From NCBI GenBank assembly GCA_029775855.1, contig JARVJZ010000003.1, forward strand, positions 32,001-96,000: DNA of 64,000 nt, in the 5' to 3' direction. A model generated the notes under the pieces. It saw nothing but the letters and a program-made list of their open reading frames with translations, was not told the DNA's origin and searched no databases. The DNA comes from Nitrososphaeria archaeon. GTDB lineage: Archaea > Thermoproteota > Nitrososphaeria > Nitrososphaerales > JAAOZN01. Shown piece after piece: positions 11,243 to 22,508 of this stretch. How positions within the stretch are numbered: position 1 is the stretch's first letter; the number at the start of each line of letters is the position of its first letter. Made by a program: the position numbers and the translations under genes.

Positions 11243-12445
11243 TTAATCTTCATCCTTCTGTGGGTTAAGGTGTGTAAAGTAGTCGGATAAAGCATCTTTT
11301 TGAGTTGAGGCATCATTTATAAGAAGCGCTTCGATCTCCTCTACAAACTCCTTATTAAAGCCTCGTGGAAGACTTGTATTTAGATCAACCAAATCTAGGG
11401 GCCAAGGTAGACCCGTCGCGGGGTTATGGAATGATTTAAAGTATGAGAGTAAAGGCTCTATATCTGTGCCGGCTTTAACCTCAAACTCAAATGGTGGTGG
11501 TTGGTTGCATCTGACAAAGTGTCTTGAGGTGCCTATTATGCGTTCAACAGCGTACTCCAAAGATTTGTGAATAGAGTGCGACACACTACGCTTCGCTTTA
11601 TCATATAGTTGTTCTATATTTCTAACCTTCTTCTCAGACAGCACTGCATAATTGTAGAGTGACTTTATCTGAGCGTAAAAGTTGTATGCTTCTGGGCGTT
11701 CAAATAACCATTCATATGAAAAGTAATGTTTTGGCGGTAGAAGCGCCGTTAGAATGTGCTTGTCATTTGCGCCTACACACATATTGGGGTCTCTATATTT
11801 GTAGAGGAGCCAGCCGTCTATTGCGGTAGATCGGCTTCTTTTTATTACTCCTACTGCTTTTCGCGAGTCCATTAGGGCTAAAGTCTTATCTCTTATGTTT
11901 GAAATCAACTCTCTTCCGAATCTGTATCCATCGACACCTAAAATTTCTTCTCTGACTTTGTATGCAGCGGCTCTAAAGCCAAAGAAACTCCCATCTAGTA
12001 TAACCCAATCTACATCCATTTTTTTGAGGCATGTATATGCAAGTTCTCGTTCAAGGTTAAGCCTCAAAAGCTCAAGTAGGGTTAAGGTGTTGCTGTATCC
12101 TTCGCTCTGCTCCGCTGTGTAGCATCTTGATATGTAGCCTTCATCCACTTGCCGCTTTCCTTCAAATATAAGATATGAAGCGCAGTATGTCCCAACTCTT
12201 ATACCTAATCTCTCACTCGTAGTTGGAGAGTTAGAGCCATCTACCACCAAAACTCTCCAATTTAACCATTCGTCAGAATCTAGAATAGGCTTACCCTTTA
12301 CTACCGAGCTCAAACTTCTTATCTTCTGCTGCATACGCTGCATTCTTGCTTTGCATCTTCTAGCCTCCTCTTCAGCAAGCTTAAAGAATTGATGTTGTAG
12401 CGGTGGTGGGAGCTTAAACCAACTACTCTCTTTGTCGTTAAGCAA
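11243..12445 (-). CDS. NurA-family 5'-3' nuclease
   Basis: VVDGSN and ILDGSF catalytic aspartates, VGVIKRSRS, and C-terminal GLPWPLDLVD. Confidence 0.8.
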   Translation of the reverse strand: MLNDKESSWFKLPPPLQHQFFKLAEEEARRCKARMQRMQQKIRSLSSVVKGKPILDSDEWLNWRVLVVDGSNSPTTSERLGIRVGTYCASYLIFEGKRQVDEGYISRCYTAEQSEGYSNTLTLLELLRLNLERELAYTCLKKMDVDWVILDGSFFGFRAAAYKVREEILGVDGYRFGRELISNIRDKTLALMDSRKAVGVIKRSRSTAIDGWLLYKYRDPNMCVGANDKHILTALLPPKHYFSYEWLFERPEAYNFYAQIKSLYNYAVLSEKKVRNIEQLYDKAKRSVSHSIHKSLEYAVERIIGTSRHFVRCNQPPPFEFEVKAGTDIEPLLSYFKSFHNPATGLPWPLDLVDLNTSLPRGFNKEFVEEIEALLINDASTQKDALSDYFTHLNPQKDED

Positions 12446-12446
12446 C

Positions 12447-13874
12447 CTACTTTACCTCAAATGTGATGAGCAGAGGTATAGGAGATGGATTCATGTTACC
12501 CATAAAATAGAAGTGTCCTGGCGGTAGCGAAAGCAAGAACTTTGGGTCTATGTTGAACGGCGAAAGCCAGTTTCCAGCCTCATTTATGTCCAGTGGATGA
12601 ATCTTTCCTACAAACTGAGTGTTCAGATTCCTCCGCACAGCCGCATTTATGCCTATTTCACCAGCTATACCTTGAGACAGTATGCAAATGCAGAGCCTAT
12701 GAGAGCGCCCGAGAGCGCATAAATCTATGATAATATCCGTAGTTTCCCTTTGTATACCATCTGGGTTAAATGGGCAATATTGAGGTCCCTCATCTATAAC
12801 TAGAGCGAGGTTTAGGTCTTCATCGTTCTGCATCAGATCCATTATATATCGAGCGAAGGTCAAGAAGACAGAGAGCTTCTCATCTTTACCCGTCTTCTTC
12901 ATATCAACGATGATGAGCCTACGCTCCTTAACTAGACGAAGTATGTCTTCAGCACTAAGGGTGCCTAGAATAGTTTGGATATCACTGTCCTTCAGCCTAC
13001 GATAACCCCTCTCAAAACGCTGCTGGTCTTCGAAGGGTTTACCTGAGCCTAAGTTTTTTGGATTTAAAGATTTAGTTATGCTTGTGTATAGAACTCTTCT
13101 AAACTCCGCTACACTTAACCCACGCCAACTTTCTGAATATACGAACTCCTCTAGAGCTTGTGTAACCGTGCCTCTTGCCTGCTGACCCGAGTATCCGAAG
13201 CTACCCATCTTCTTACAGAGGTATGAGACAACAGTCTCAGGATCTAAAGCTATATCAGATATGCCTATAATATTCTGCTTCTGATAGTAAGGAGCGTAGT
13301 CACGACCCTTCCAATCCAAGACCAGAACATCAAACCCTGCGTCAAGAAACATTGGTATCAGCTGAAAACGCGCCAAAAACGACTTACCACCACCAGTAGA
13401 AGCGAACACACCTATGTGATAAGGGATAAATGTTTCATCAACAGGGACAAGCCAACCAGGATGCCCCTCATAGTAGCCTACCGTATATCTATGCCTTGCA
13501 CCTGCTAGATAACGCATCGGGTCATCCTTATCTTCGAAAAGATAGACGATTGAGCCTGGGGCAAGTATCTTTTTGTTCTGCTCTATAGTCTCTTTAACTT
13601 CGCCTATAACTGATAATGTGAAGTCATAGGTTTCCTTGGCTGTAGATGGGGGGCCTCCTGCTCTAGCGTAGGCTACCCCTGGGTTATAGCCTCCAGGTTT
13701 AAGGTTTTCGTTGATGCCTCTTCCTCTTCTTAAGACTGCAAGTATCTTGCCTTCGTTCCTATTGTCTACTAGCACAAGGTCTTCTACTTTAACTCTCTTT
13801 TCTTCGGATTGATTAAGTATGACTCTGGCTTCGTTTTCAGAAGATTCACTGGCTATTAGCCCTATTGGTCTCAT
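12447..13874 (-). CDS. HerA/FtsK-family ATPase with N-terminal HAS barrel
   Basis: HIGVFASTGGGKS Walker A, LVIDEG Walker B, LGRSH..ILSQ arginine/Q motifs, NLNTQF. Confidence 0.85.
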   Translation of the reverse strand: MRPIGLIASESSENEARVILNQSEEKRVKVEDLVLVDNRNEGKILAVLRRGRGINENLKPGGYNPGVAYARAGGPPSTAKETYDFTLSVIGEVKETIEQNKKILAPGSIVYLFEDKDDPMRYLAGARHRYTVGYYEGHPGWLVPVDETFIPYHIGVFASTGGGKSFLARFQLIPMFLDAGFDVLVLDWKGRDYAPYYQKQNIIGISDIALDPETVVSYLCKKMGSFGYSGQQARGTVTQALEEFVYSESWRGLSVAEFRRVLYTSITKSLNPKNLGSGKPFEDQQRFERGYRRLKDSDIQTILGTLSAEDILRLVKERRLIIVDMKKTGKDEKLSVFLTFARYIMDLMQNDEDLNLALVIDEGPQYCPFNPDGIQRETTDIIIDLCALGRSHRLCICILSQGIAGEIGINAAVRRNLNTQFVGKIHPLDINEAGNWLSPFNIDPKFLLSLPPGHFYFMGNMNPSPIPLLITFEVK

Positions 13875-13884
13875 CTGCTGCCGC

Positions 13885-15600
13885 CTACTCTGATTTTAGA
13901 AGCGAGGTAAGTAGGCTGCTTCTTGTAGCTATTAGAAGCTGGGTCTTCATCTTCAACCCTTTTAAGATCGTAGCTAACCCATTTATCCCAGATTCATCTA
14001 AACCCTCTTCAGGCTCATCTAATAGGAGTAGGGGTGCTCTCTCTAACTCGTTTACCGCTAGTAGAAGAGCAAAGCTTAAGGCTACATTTTCTCCAGTGCT
14101 CATTTGATGCGCATAGATCCAAGTGTCATCTACCTTACCCTTAAGGAATAGCACCTCTTGCCCCCTTACTACCCTACTTTCAAAATCTATGTCTTTGAAA
14201 CGCTCGTATGGATAAATTCTTTTGAAGATTTCCTTAAATGACGATTTGAGCGAAGTAAGGCGTTCACTCCTAGCTTCATTTATAGATTCAATGAGTGTAG
14301 CTTTTATATGTTTGAGCTTCTCAGCAAGATTTTTAAGATTTATGAGCTTCTGCTGTAAAACAGCTTTGTCTTGTGAACCTATCTGAGCTAGAGCCGCCTC
14401 GTATGCTTCTCTCTGCTCTTCTAGGCTGCTTAACCTACTCTCAAGCTGCTCTATCTCTCGCCTAGTTTCCTCTGCTTCCTTTAGCAGCTGTGTTGCTTTC
14501 GATAAATCTTCTTCCGATACGGGTTGCACCTTATATTTCGAAACCTCTGCTTCTAGCTTGCTTATCTGAGTTTCGATGAATCTCCTCTGCTCTAGACCTC
14601 TTCGATACTCCTCTACCTCTTTACTCTTCTGCGCAAGACGGCTCTGCAAGATATTATACTCTTCTATAACCTTCCTATATTCATCTTCAAGATGCTTAAA
14701 GCCTTCAAGAGCCTCTTTCGTCAAAGGAGCATTACAAAGAGGGCAAGTCTGAACATTCATATTCCTCTGCAGATCTATCATCTGTATAGAAGCCTCCAGT
14801 ACAGCTATCCTTCTGTTAAGCGCATCATTCCTAGCCTCCATCTCCCTTAACTCATCCTCAAACCCCTCAGAAGGCTCTGGCAAGGTCTTAAGCTGCATCC
14901 GATAATCCTCAAGCATCTTAACTCGACTTTGCAACTCCAGCTCAGCCCTCCTAACCTCCTCAGCCCTACGTTGAACACCTTCAGCCCAATTTAGCATAGT
15001 GCTATTCATCATATGCTTAAGACGAAGGGTTGCAAGCCTATCTTTGATCTGCTTGATCTCTGAAGCAACTTCGTTGCTCCTTTTCTGAATTTCTTCGCTT
15101 TGCTTAAGTGATGTTAGCTGTCTCTCAATATCATTTATCCTACGCTCTACTGGAGCAGCGGTTATTTCGGATGCGACTTGGTTATATCTTTCGAATCCTA
15201 GAAGCTGACTGATCTTAAGAGCCTTTTCTACTGGCGCACCCACGAAGAGCTTCGCTACCTCTCGACCATCTACAAATATCTTTGAAGAGATGTTAAGCGG
15301 TTCTGGTAGATTCGTCTTTACAGAAACAGAGCCCCCACGCTTCTTTCTCCTCTCGATATAAAAAGGTAAATCGTTGATGCGTCCTTCTACCCTAACCCAC
15401 ATATATTCGTATGAAGTGTTAATAAGATCGTCCAAAACCATATTTGAAGGAGCTTCACCAGAAAGCGCAAAGAGAACAGCAAGAAGGCGTGAAGTCTTAC
15501 CAGAACCCATACTACCCGAAAAGACCGTCAAATCATCTAGAACAAATTCATCCTCTTTAAGACCTCGAAAACCATAAAGTTTAACCTTTTCCAGCCTCAG
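13885..15600 (-). CDS. short SMC/Rad50-like ATPase with central zinc hook (571 aa, probable CTG start)
   Basis: in-frame N-terminal extension (M)RLEKVKLYGFRGL beyond the ORF track; GSMGSGKT Walker A, coiled coils around CPLC, MSTGE signature, LLLLDEPEEGLD; GGAGG upstream of the CTG. Confidence 0.85.
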   Translation of the reverse strand: MRLEKVKLYGFRGLKEDEFVLDDLTVFSGSMGSGKTSRLLAVLFALSGEAPSNMVLDDLINTSYEYMWVRVEGRINDLPFYIERRKKRGGSVSVKTNLPEPLNISSKIFVDGREVAKLFVGAPVEKALKISQLLGFERYNQVASEITAAPVERRINDIERQLTSLKQSEEIQKRSNEVASEIKQIKDRLATLRLKHMMNSTMLNWAEGVQRRAEEVRRAELELQSRVKMLEDYRMQLKTLPEPSEGFEDELREMEARNDALNRRIAVLEASIQMIDLQRNMNVQTCPLCNAPLTKEALEGFKHLEDEYRKVIEEYNILQSRLAQKSKEVEEYRRGLEQRRFIETQISKLEAEVSKYKVQPVSEEDLSKATQLLKEAEETRREIEQLESRLSSLEEQREAYEAALAQIGSQDKAVLQQKLINLKNLAEKLKHIKATLIESINEARSERLTSLKSSFKEIFKRIYPYERFKDIDFESRVVRGQEVLFLKGKVDDTWIYAHQMSTGENVALSFALLLAVNELERAPLLLLDEPEEGLDESGINGLATILKGLKMKTQLLIATRSSLLTSLLKSE

Positions 15601-15734
15601 ACTTCTTCTGCCTCCTCCATCAGCCTAACTATAATATCTCTAATCTTACTTGTTGGAGTCTTAAGAAATAGTTCTAAAAGAGCATACTCCTCTTCACTCA
15701 ACCTCTGCCTCAACTTTGCCTCAACAAGGTCCAA
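15597..15734 (-). CDS. unannotated 45-aa acidic helical protein (MDLVEAKLRQRLSEEEYALLELFLKTPTSKIRDIIVRLMEEAEEV)
   Basis: TTG start after AGGTGG; its TGA stop overlaps the CTG start of the SMC-like gene (CTGA). Confidence 0.7.
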   Translation of the reverse strand: MDLVEAKLRQRLSEEEYALLELFLKTPTSKIRDIIVRLMEEAEEV

Positions 15735-15787
15735 CCGACAGACCACCTAGCTTGAATGAAATTCTTTCCCTATCTACAACAAAGCAA

Positions 15788-15803
15788 TACTTAAAGGTTC
15801 TTT
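15788..15803 (-). promoter_or_regulatory. BRE/TATA promoter of the SMC-HerA-NurA operon
   Basis: minus strand reads AAAGAACC-TTTAAGTA upstream of the 45-aa ORF. Confidence 0.55.
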
Positions 15804-15854: not shown

Positions 15855-16187
15855 CTATTTACCACTTAACTTAAGAAGAAGCTCAATATATCTTTCTAGC
15901 AGATCAAGCAGATCCTTTTGCCGCTCTATAGAGCGTTCATCCCTCAAAGCAAACGCTACTTCAAGAGCCTTAGTCTCTATAATCTCTTTGAGTGAAGGTA
16001 ATTTAGCTTCAAGTTGAAGGGTAGCAGCACTCTCATCTTTCGCTAATCCACAGACTATACAACTAACTTCACCTCTATACTTAATCTGAACACCACCACA
16101 CTTTGGGCAAGGCTCACGCAAAAGAGTAGCACCCTTCCTCAGCATTTCAGAAGCCGCAGCAAGCCGCTCCCTTGACACCGCAACCAT
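15855..16187 (-). CDS. UPF0148/autoantigen-p27-like Zn-ribbon protein
   Basis: MLRKGATLLREPCPKCG...CIVCG followed by a helical C-terminus. Confidence 0.85.
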   Translation of the reverse strand: MVAVSRERLAAASEMLRKGATLLREPCPKCGGVQIKYRGEVSCIVCGLAKDESAATLQLEAKLPSLKEIIETKALEVAFALRDERSIERQKDLLDLLERYIELLLKLSGK

Positions 16188-16302
16188 TCAACCACCATAC
16201 ATCAAACTCGTTATTTTAATGTTATGCATAGCGTTAACAGAAAAGTTAATTATGAGTGTTAAACTTAACAAGGAAGCAGATTATCAAAGAGGTGGAAACA
16301 AC

Positions 16303-16578
16303 TTGAGCGCCAAAAAGAAGAAGGAAAACCTAGAGAAACTCCAGAAAGCTATAACAACACTACAACAAGTAGCAGAAAGCACAATAACCCCAAGAAACAT
16401 CAGAAAGCTCGTCAAAGACGCTATAGCTATGCTACAAGATGAAGAAACAGCCATATCAGTAAGAGCAGCCAACGCAATAAGCATCCTAGACGAAGTCTCC
16501 CAAGACCCTAACATGCCATCATTTTCAAGAGTAACCATATGGTCTGCAGTCTCAACCTTAGAAAGCATAAGAGAATAA
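16303..16578 (+). CDS. UPF0147 family protein
   Basis: TPRNIR, RAANAISILDEVSQDPNMP..R..IW; start moved to the TTG after GAGGTG. Confidence 0.88.
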   Translation: MSAKKKKENLEKLQKAITTLQQVAESTITPRNIRKLVKDAIAMLQDEETAISVRAANAISILDEVSQDPNMPSFSRVTIWSAVSTLESIRE

Positions 16579-17719: not shown

Positions 17720-20838
<3,119 letters not shown>

Positions 20839-20909
20839 ATAATCGCAGGTGCGTTTCACCTGCTTCGCCCTTCACCCATCAAGATACCTTGATGAGTTGC
20901 ATCTACTTT

Positions 20910-22508
<1,599 letters not shown>

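Follow-up and report, generated by a model that had tools for sequence, protein, structure and literature searches.

We identified a four-gene module on the minus strand of a 64-kb window, the whole stretch of DNA analysed here (contig JARVJZ010000003.1 of the Nitrososphaeria archaeon assembly GCA_029775855.1, in our handles G000:C3:32001-96000; coordinates refer to this window unless a contig is named). The operon, at 11243-15803, encodes in this order a microprotein of 45 amino acids (aa), a short zinc-hook ABC ATPase of Rad50 ancestry, a HerA-like ATPase and a NurA-like nuclease, the last two here called HerA2 and NurA2; together the four chains comprise ~1,490 residues. The module looks like an undescribed DNA-end processing machine without Mre11, and we see somewhat less than an even chance that the four genes specify a single machine, independent of Mre11, for tethering and resecting DNA ends on the organism's own chromosome. 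The initial annotation, made from the sequence alone, had proposed a distinct SMC-HerA-NurA module devoid of a metallophosphoesterase gene, with the 45-aa protein as an accessory subunit. The lengths, positions and common orientation it gave were confirmed on the minus strand, and no metallophosphoesterase gene was found within or adjoining the operon in the open reading frame (ORF) list or by Pfam scan. The distinctness of the module, as opposed to a rearranged canonical locus, is borne out by the ATPase, which forms a clade of its own outside the Mre11-adjacent Rad50s of relatives, and by HerA2 and NurA2, which are paralogous to a second pair in the same genome.

The comparison set consisted of this genome (G000) and 40 relatives of the same order, 41 genomes in all. 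Homologues of the ATPase (E<1e-20) were detected in 12 of the 40 relatives (G001-G003, G007, G008, G010, G016, G020, G021, G024, G030 and G033), and the carriers span seven families, with 40-71% identity over the full length. ATPase, HerA2 and NurA2 occur in the same order in 8 of the 11 relatives' loci that were fetched; in the other three, the contig ends inside herA (L030), NurA is absent (L040) or the locus is pseudogenised (L041). Conservation of the gene order, raised in the initial annotation, is thus found among the Nitrososphaerales carriers, whereas elsewhere in the Thaumarchaeota-Aigarchaeota-Crenarchaeota-Korarchaeota (TACK) lineages HerA2-NurA2 mostly occurs without the ATPase. 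Wherever sequence downstream of a full-length ATPase gene was available, HerA2 was the next gene, and the ATPase was never seen away from HerA2. Within the fetched loci, HerA2 is the most conserved protein (61-88%), followed by NurA2 (42-75%) and the ATPase (40-71%). The flanking genes vary between families and are ordinary housekeeping genes, and no integrase, transposase or defence gene was found near the locus in the six relatives' loci with ORFs listed, nor in the window.

Two of the relatives' loci differ from the rest. At L041 (G010:C23), the ATPase gene is broken by many stops, HerA2 and NurA2 are gone and a thermosome-like gene lies next to it; at L040/L062 (G007:C162), HerA2 is not followed by NurA2 and an ATT stands at the start position of the ATPase.

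The zinc-hook ATPase and its small partner

The ATPase contains CPLC (residues 286-289), QMSTGE, FVDGRE and IATRS. The hook, the MSTGE signature and the departures from Rad50 at the Q- and H-loops had been noted in the initial annotation. The departures were confirmed by profile alignment to M. jannaschii Rad50, which sets 'ieGReiaklf..Ek...d.lLGl' on 'IKQGEIAKFL..EK.....LLGI' and 'ivvatR' on 'MIIITH': the protein has no Gln at the Q-loop and Arg instead of His at the H-loop, while both Q and H are present in the 8 reference Rad50s of the head alignment. C-P-x-C (C286, P287, C289), MSTGE, G-R and A-T-R are invariant in 10/10 homologues, as are the Walker A motif G-x-M-G-x-GKTS and the Walker B/D-loop LLLDEP-x-EGLD, which align to M. 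jannaschii Rad50. The AlphaFold2 model, with a mean predicted local distance difference test score (pLDDT) of 84.3, consists of a head and an antiparallel coiled coil of ~135 residues per strand, at the tip of which the zinc hook forms the loop between helices 247-280 and 295-355.

Among solved structures, Rad50 came first both in the profile search (3aux, 66 bits) and in Foldseek (7zr1, E 2.7e-19), with SMC heads lower and Lamassu LmuB at rank 14. Pfam SMC_N scored 55.5 bits, and none of the curated NCBIfam families admits the protein: arcadin-4 (NF053563), with a cut-off of 860, reached 117.1 bits spread over three stretches; ASRP (NF045487) reached 76.9 bits against a cut-off of 300, its alignment running over the whole length of the protein (residues 24-560; the model has 593 positions); and the best Rad50 model gave 53.6 bits against a cut-off of 847, other Rad50 models scoring lower (cut-offs of at least 700). 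Regarding the marks of Rad50, the protein has the ABC head and the CxxC hook, and it lacks the Q and H residues and an equivalog-level score, no Mre11 partner having been found in the genome. We consider it to be of Rad50 ancestry based on its closest solved relatives by sequence and by fold and on its invariant CxxC hook.

The family is small. An exhaustive profile search of 1.84 billion representatives returned 13 proteins below 1e-30, namely four full-length cluster representatives, seven fragments of 72-381 aa and two 835-aa proteins, with a sharp drop in score between the last full-length member (695 bits) and the first 835-aa protein (145 bits). When ten of the next matches were scored on NCBIfam, three of ~835 aa obtained 334-462 bits on arcadin-4, three were Rad50-like and four of 684-719 aa fell weakly between arcadin-4 and ASRP. 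Trees were built from the head domains (first 165 plus last 150 residues) with FastTree (155 rows) and with IQ-TREE in quick mode under LG+C20 (55 rows), from rows picked by likeness to the ATPase-family profile, a biased sample. In both trees, the ATPase family forms a clade with full support and a long stem (1.16), and it groups with arcadin-4-like, 700-750-aa and 684-719-aa proteins (support 99 and 93), a grouping inside which the trees give no firm order. The Rad50s encoded beside Mre11 in relatives fall elsewhere in both trees. Motif states agree with this grouping: the reference Rad50s have Q and H, arcadin-4-like proteins carry Gln at the H-loop but none at the Q-loop, and the 684-719-aa group shares the H-loop Arg and the S-T-G signature with the ATPase family.

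A family of ~680 aa found in four relatives (L122-L125, in G012, G021, G037 and G020, respectively) was considered as the nearest kin of the ATPase and rejected, being a different SMC-like family in another context. Its gene lies in a conserved block with two helicase-like genes (947-970 aa), ~250- and ~190-aa genes just downstream, an SbcD-related phosphoesterase of 252-280 aa and a 227-aa partner. This block may be a further SMC-like module that is still uncharacterised; in G000, the ~680-aa gene has no counterpart that we could see.

A microprotein frame lies directly upstream of the ATPase gene in 11/11 loci read, of which 7 frames were found by tblastn, one more by blastp and those of L034 and L041 by reading the frames. 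Amino-acid identity is 31-71% among 9 sequences, whose alignment keeps two amphipathic helices. The microprotein belongs to no Pfam, NCBIfam or PADLOC family and had no match of 0.9 or above in the ESM Atlas. Co-folded with the ATPase, it obtained interaction prediction scores from aligned errors (ipSAE) of 0.62, 0.61 and 0.62 over three runs, whereas the best of three controls scored 0.00. The mark thus passed is reached by 58/80 solved complexes and by 2/110 mismatched pairs (rough counts, own alignments used). The runs agree in at least 97% of contacts, with a partner pLDDT of at least 83. In the predicted interface, microprotein residues 3-45 lie on ATPase residues 136-154 and 414-447, the coiled-coil helices leaving the head. 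On Rad50, this coiled-coil base is occupied by the Rad50-binding domain of Mre11, and kleisins bind SMC proteins at the equivalent neck; the entries 3qku and 5da9 are among the fold matches of the ATPase. Its conservation and the models support the microprotein as an accessory subunit that would bind the ATPase at the base of the coiled coil, in line with the role first proposed for it. As to the possibility that it is a detached Rad50-binding domain of Mre11, no sequence support was obtained (hhalign against nine Mre11 C-termini from relatives, probability 0.15%), and it is only the predicted binding site of the microprotein, and not its sequence, that would resemble Mre11.

Mre11, Rad50 and the second HerA-NurA pair

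The initial annotation had advised searching for a separate canonical mre11-rad50-herA-nurA locus, and it had set against its own view the case that the operon holds the only rad50, herA and nurA copies, that these branch inside the canonical clades and that mre11 is simply relocated. In the assembly (1.507 Mb, 6 contigs, 98.4% complete), neither gene of a canonical mre11-rad50 locus was found. The Metallophos and sbcD models match only the PolD small subunit (484 aa, by cdc6) and phosphoesterases of 169-259 aa, and a relocated Mre11 was rejected on this account; the best match of the Rad50 model is the canonical SMC of 1189 aa, and the second is the operon ATPase. The ATPase is, in this respect, the only Rad50-type copy found. 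For herA and nurA, however, a second pair exists, and the ATPase lies outside the canonical clades. This pair, nurA1 (314 aa) then herA1 (494 aa), is encoded on the minus strand at C2:871-3300 (locus L004, C2:133-3300) and is followed by an HTH_3 gene and not by mre11. A further HerA-family ATPase with a DUF87 domain (602 aa, G000:C3:107470-108129, L003) lies ~60 kb from the operon on the same contig.

Most relatives have an Mre11 of 380-445 aa beside a Rad50 of 670-860 aa. The intact carriers G016, G020, G021 and G030 and the decayed carrier G010 have both Mre11 and Rad50 elsewhere in the genome. Given that these carriers also encode Mre11-Rad50, the module is a second system in its own right rather than a diverged form of the canonical one. 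On the other hand, an Mre11-sized match is missing in 8/13 carriers (G000-G003, G007, G008, G024 and G033, with a completeness of 72% for G001 and 88% for G033) compared with 3/28 non-carriers (G005, G009 and G035). The tally is our own and covers related, non-independent genomes, and a truncated match at a contig end in G004 was counted as present. Considering that the Mre11-less carriers belong to four families, a few events at most would account for the pattern, which hints that the module can stand in for Mre11-Rad50.

HerA2 matches the Pfam DUF87 / HerA central domain (PF01935) with 42.6 bits (cut-off 23.2), and its Walker A (TGGGKS) and Walker B (IDE) motifs are invariant in 10/10 sequences. 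Its homologues are 61-95% identical within Nitrososphaerales, falling to 41-50% in the remaining TACK lineages, and neither protein nor profile sequence search returned a match to HerA2 among the structures of the PDB. A pattern scan with the HerA2 alignment, using one genome per species, yielded 63 loci from Nitrososphaeria, Caldarchaeales, Bathyarchaeia, Korarchaeia, Brockarchaeota and Hecatellales. NurA2 directly follows HerA2 in 58 of them, the misses being four contig ends and L062 (the G007 locus), whereas the ATPase is present at only 9, all in Nitrososphaeria; outside the Nitrososphaeria ATPase group, the genes upstream of HerA2 are unrelated. The ATPase-linked genes group in a single clade of the HerA2 tree (support 99), which also includes L055, where an ATPase fragment is found at a contig end, and L058, which has no ATPase and carries EF-1-alpha upstream. 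The remainder of the tree largely follows taxonomy, apart from a few oddly placed metagenome bins. HerA2 is found in 16/41 genomes of the order, against 34/41 for HerA1 (the C2 type). To judge by these sequences, HerA2-NurA2 is an old, mainly vertically inherited and dispensable second pair across TACK archaea, mostly standing alone, to which one Nitrososphaerales lineage has added, once, the ATPase and the microprotein.

Two genomes of one family, G008 (contig C9) and G024, each encode HerA2 twice, as an ATPase-linked copy (72-73% identity) and as a stand-alone copy (46-48%). The stand-alone copies resemble those of Bathyarchaeia and Caldarchaeales.

NurA2 matches Pfam PF09376 with 28.4 bits (cut-off 21). 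Its AlphaFold2 model (pLDDT 84.6) has S. solfataricus NurA (2ygk, E 2.5e-11) as the top Foldseek match, then 9x1m and 3taz, with TdpAB (8wfd, E 1.8e-6) at rank 10 and 7f6d at rank 15. In alignments with NurA of T. kodakarensis and S. solfataricus, the catalytic D/E/D falls on D69, E132 and D151, one solved NurA chain bearing Ala at the first catalytic Asp, and D69, E132, D151, D351, D354 and the C-terminal N-P-Q-K are invariant in 17/17 NurA2. In P. furiosus NurA, the catalytic residues are Asp51, Glu105, Asp126 and the C-terminal His411; an acidic fourth ligand is natural in T. maritima NurA and T. thermophilus Argonaute (PMC3300031). An Asp in place of this His had been proposed initially, and the residue itself, D354, is indeed invariant; its register with the His was set by eye, matching the invariant stretch G345-x-P-x-x-L-D-L-x-D354 of NurA2 with G-Y-P-x-x-L-x-L-A-H of NurA1 of the same genome. 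In the profile comparison of NurA2 with NurA1, only residues 45-249 aligned, with a tool probability of 7.9%, and the C-terminal His position lies outside this range. Asp354 probably takes the place of the fourth ligand in NurA2. At the C-terminus (11243-11257), L-N-P-Q-K precedes acidic residues in 17/17 sequences from several TACK lineages. This tail is disordered in the model (pLDDT <50) and may be a docking tail.

Operon layout, neighbourhood and host

The coordinates of the operon and its elements are given in Table 1. The gaps between ATPase and HerA2 (10 nt) and between HerA2 and NurA2 (1 nt) are exactly as initially reported; the first junction, given as -3 nt, is instead an overlap of 4 nt counting the stop codon and of 1 nt without it. 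Here, microprotein and ATPase genes meet in the tetranucleotide CTGA, in which the stop codon TGA of the former shares bases with CTG, the first codon of the latter. The 571-aa reading of the ATPase requires this CTG start, the earliest in-frame ATG, GTG or TTG giving 548 aa only. Every Rad50 or SMC head starts with an N-terminal beta-strand, which the 548-aa version loses. At the aligned start codon, TTG or GTG is found in 6/11 loci, CTG in 4 (the genus and L034) and ATT in 1, and the NTGA stop-start overlap (CTGA, GTGA or TTGA) is retained in most loci. A contig from a separate hot-spring metagenome study spans 15336-15656 with 0 differences; since it is identical over this region and CTG recurs in 4 loci, the CTG start is not an assembly error. 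With the ATPase start being CTG, a fusion of microprotein and ATPase via frameshift was considered, and it was rejected given the TTG or GTG found at that codon in homologues and the conserved stop-start overlap. The CTGA junction looks like a case of translational coupling in an archaeon, with reinitiation at a start codon that is weak or non-canonical.

Table 1. Operon and associated elements in the 64-kb window
Feature	Position	Strand	Description
BRE/TATA-like element, AAAGAAYCTTTAAGTAT = AAAGAACCTTTAAGTAT	15787..15803	-	5' of the microprotein gene; putative promoter
Microprotein gene	15597..15734	-	45 aa from TTG, 49 aa from GTG at 15746; predicted helix-loop-helix
Short Rad50/arcadin-4-like zinc-hook ABC ATPase	13885..15600	-	571 aa, CTG start; Pfam SMC_N
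Zinc-hook codons C286-P-L-C289, coiled-coil tip	14734..14745	-	From alignment and model
HerA-like ATPase, second paralogue group (HerA2)	12447..13874	-	475 aa; Pfam DUF87 / HerA central domain
NurA-like nuclease, second paralogue group (NurA2)	11243..12445	-	400 aa; Pfam NurA

The single TFB-recognition element (BRE)/TATA box initially placed ahead of the operon corresponds to a 17-mer (with one Y position) conserved upstream in 3/3 genomes of the genus, and TTTAAA-like elements lie upstream of most other loci; its promoter role is inferred from this sequence conservation. In metatranscriptome run X9, which leaves most of the stretch uncovered, short contigs that each differ at 1-5 positions fall on nurA, herA and the ATPase gene; they give a weak hint that the operon is expressed in a close relative, DNA carry-over being possible.

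Within the genus, the arrangement hisC-UPF0147-p27-operon-MFS is kept. In the window, genes for an Auto_anti-p27 zinc-ribbon protein (110 aa, minus strand) and UPF0147 (119 aa, plus strand) lie at 15855-16578, just upstream of the operon, and this upstream position is shared by the genus and by G010, which belongs to another family, and not by other families. A complete 16S-23S rRNA operon (17757-22455, minus strand) lies 2 kb upstream of the module, and its G+C content of ~58%, compared with ~43% in the surrounding genome, fits a hot-spring thermophile. Matching DNA occurs in hot-spring metagenomes, shares <0.1 in the sequencing runs X8-X15 being left out of this habitat reading, and close homologues bear names such as Nitrososphaerales or Thaumarchaeota archaeon. 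The search for AmoA gave no match in this genome, and as the control genomes held no positive either, nothing firm follows from it.

Competing explanations and known systems

From the observations above, we infer each biochemical step and the cellular role of a machine that would work as follows. The ATPase would dimerise via the CxxC hook at the tip of a coiled coil of ~20 nm, and its ATP-engaged heads would clamp or bridge DNA. Given the missing Q-loop Gln and the Arg in place of the H-loop His, the engaged state would probably be long-lived, and the protein would act as a sensor or tether rather than as a fast ATPase. The microprotein, whose synthesis termination-reinitiation at the CTGA overlap would couple to that of the ATPase, would pack on the coiled-coil base, either stabilising the neck or serving as a docking point. 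A HerA2 hexamer and a NurA2 dimer would then be loaded on the held end, HerA2-NurA2 translocating along and degrading the DNA, with NurA2 cutting by means of a D-E-D-D metal site. In G000, where neither Mre11 nor canonical Rad50 was found, the module would be the sole Rad50-type activity for end recognition. In favour of this explanation are the cohesion of the operon, its tight junctions, the Rad50 ancestry of the ATPase, the predicted microprotein contact, the NurA fold with its aligned D/E/D, a HerA2 tree that largely follows taxonomy, the housekeeping neighbours and the failure to find Mre11 and Rad50 in this and other carriers; HerA-NurA is, moreover, tied to DNA-end degradation in all studied cases, as far as the accessible parts of the sources go. 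Context and phylogeny lean towards chromosomal DNA-end processing.

Several points weigh against it. Five carriers keep Mre11, and the module is therefore not simply a replacement for it. It is also dispensable, with HerA2 in 16/41 and the ATPase in 13/41 genomes of the order. Decay is apparent in G010 (stops in the ATPase gene, no HerA2 or NurA2) and in G007 (no NurA2, an ATT start), and L058 lacks an ATPase in spite of belonging to the ATPase-linked HerA2 clade. Such patchy carriage and decay would also fit an accessory or defence role. Regarding the ATPase, it may be crippled, having lost both the Q-loop Gln and the H-loop His, and it scores 89.6 bits on the Lamassu LmuB model. Regarding the microprotein, its sequence gives no link to Mre11, and the co-fold could have passed through the model's memory of solved Rad50-Mre11 or SMC-kleisin complexes.

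The same features could be read as a defence system of the Lamassu or Wadjet type, in which the hook ATPase and its small partner would sense viral or plasmid ends or replication intermediates and unleash HerA2-NurA2 on them. A degenerate ATPase site is common in sensor-type SMC-like proteins. In PADLOC, the ATPase scores best on LmuB (89.6 bits) and mad3 (83.9 bits), and HerA2 matches mad8 (38 bits); by fold, LmuB is at rank 14 for the ATPase and TdpAB, a HerA-like/NurA-like defence pair, at rank 10 for NurA2. The patchy carriage (13 and 16 of 41 genomes), the two HerA2 copies of G008 and G024 and the decay in G010 and G007 point in the same direction. However, no defence island or mobile-element gene accompanies the six listed loci or the window, the position among housekeeping genes is stable within the genus, and the largely taxonomic HerA2 tree and the strong conservation are unlike those of fast-evolving immune genes. 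Moreover, PADLOC found no relative of LmuA or LmuC among the three other proteins, there being no credible match for either NurA2 or the microprotein, and NurA2 is nearer to repair NurA (E 2.5e-11) than to TdpB (E 1.8e-6). A relationship to MADS was rejected, the mad3 and mad8 matches reflecting generic P-loop likeness: mad3 belongs to an OLD-type ATPase-nuclease module (MAD3-MAD4), according to the accessible part of PMC13662399, and its match is accordingly one of general ABC-ATPase likeness. We think a defence role unlikely, albeit worth keeping in view.

The nearest relatives of the ATPase by profile score and tree are arcadin-4-like, and the ASRP model aligns over its whole length, which would suit a role in chromosome organisation or segregation, the ATPase bridging DNA as arcadin-4 or ClsN/ASRP would, HerA2 pumping and NurA2 trimming trapped DNA. 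HerA belongs to the FtsK-HerA pumping ATPases. ASRPs carry a zinc hook, and ClsN organises chromosome compartments, as described in the accessible part of PMC9389158. Nevertheless, the cut-offs of both families are missed widely (117 vs 860 and 76.9 vs 300 bits), and the Pfam Actin model found no actin or crenactin in G000, so that an arcade-type context is lacking. The canonical 1189-aa SMC is already present, the partners are a nuclease and its motor, tied to end degradation in the sources as far as accessible, and the module is missing from most genomes of the order. An organising role is therefore, in our view, very unlikely. We consider it more improbable still that the ATPase-microprotein and HerA2-NurA2 pairs are two independent units that merely share an operon in one lineage. 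It is true that the HerA2-NurA2 pair occurs at 58/63 HerA2 loci and the ATPase at 9 only, that L058 lost or never had the ATPase and that G010 retains ATPase remnants only. Yet the order and the short spacers are kept over seven families (40-71% ATPase identity) while the flanks change, the ATPase is never found away from HerA2, and all ATPase-linked HerA2 fall in one clade.

Mre11-Rad50 is generally regarded as the complex that responds first to DNA double-strand breaks in all organisms, and in thermophilic archaea it works with HerA-NurA. If the four proteins do form one machine for processing chromosomal ends, they would show that end recognition can be rebuilt without the Mre11 nuclease, and they would give functions to the orphan arcadin-4-like SMC branch and to the second HerA-NurA pair of TACK archaea. 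A bolder idea, possible in our judgement but with the chances on the whole against it, is that a 45-aa microprotein took the structural place of Mre11 on a Rad50-derived ATPase that steers HerA-NurA through it. The module would then represent a new class of archaeal machine for SMC-guided DNA degradation, serving either self-standing Mre11-free repair or, as the first example armed with HerA-NurA, Lamassu-like immunity. Were defence the actual function, Lamassu-type sensing would extend to archaea and have a new effector. In addition, the system is compact, and the transfer of DNA from a hook ATPase to a translocase-nuclease could be studied well on its structures.

In the full-text literature searched, which did not extend to subscription journals, neither this ATPase family, nor the linkage of a hook ATPase to HerA-NurA, nor a second HerA-NurA pair across TACK archaea turned up as described. 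For Nitrososphaera and Nitrosocaldus, the accessible parts of PMC13707971 and PMC5797428 report only NurA-HerA-Mre11 or the standard set, the Nitrososphaera gene order being given as NurA-HerA-Mre11. The ASRP paper (PMC9389158) mentions neither HerA, NurA nor Thaumarchaeota, and SMC and Thaumarchaeota go unmentioned in the accessible part of a 2026 NurA review (PMC13748450).

Among known systems, the herA-mre11-rad50-nurA operon of Sulfolobus, Pyrococcus and Thermococcus shares with the module a zinc-hook ABC ATPase, a HerA motor and a NurA-fold nuclease, and the small partner is predicted to sit on the coiled-coil base, in the place of Mre11. The module differs from it in the absence of Mre11 or any other metallophosphoesterase, in its order (microprotein, ATPase, herA, nurA) and in using a separate paralogue pair of HerA and NurA. 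Its ATPase, with 571 aa instead of the ~670-920 of canonical Rad50 and with neither the Q-loop Gln nor the H-loop His, lies outside the Mre11-adjacent clades. Arcadin-4 (Rkd4) and arcadin-4-like proteins (~790-856 aa) provide the best NCBIfam model and the nearest relatives in the search and the trees, and they likewise lack Q and H. The ATPase is, however, ~260 aa shorter, with Arg and not Gln at the H-loop and MSTGE in place of LSDGQ. Arcadin-4 is defined by its linkage with crenactin and other arcadins in the 'arcade' cluster, whereas the partners here are HerA and NurA, in a genome in which the search found no actin. The ASRPs (ClsN/coalescin, Sph1/Sph2) resemble the ATPase in length, zinc hook and archaeal distribution, with a score of 76.9 bits against the cut-off of 300, and ClsN and Sph are not described with HerA or NurA in the accessible part of PMC9389158. 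Lamassu likewise combines a nuclease effector with a short SMC ATPase of Rad50-like type and its small partner, and LmuACB is among the fold matches; the module, in contrast, has no LmuA or LmuC, would use HerA-NurA as its effector, carries a CxxC zinc hook and does not lie in a defence island. Finally, in the stand-alone NurA-HerA pairs of Deinococcus and Thermus and in TdpAB, which appear among the fold matches of NurA2 as 7f6d and 8wfd, respectively, HerA is found beside NurA without Mre11 or Rad50, as here; to such a pair, the module adds a hook ATPase and a microprotein upstream, in one lineage.

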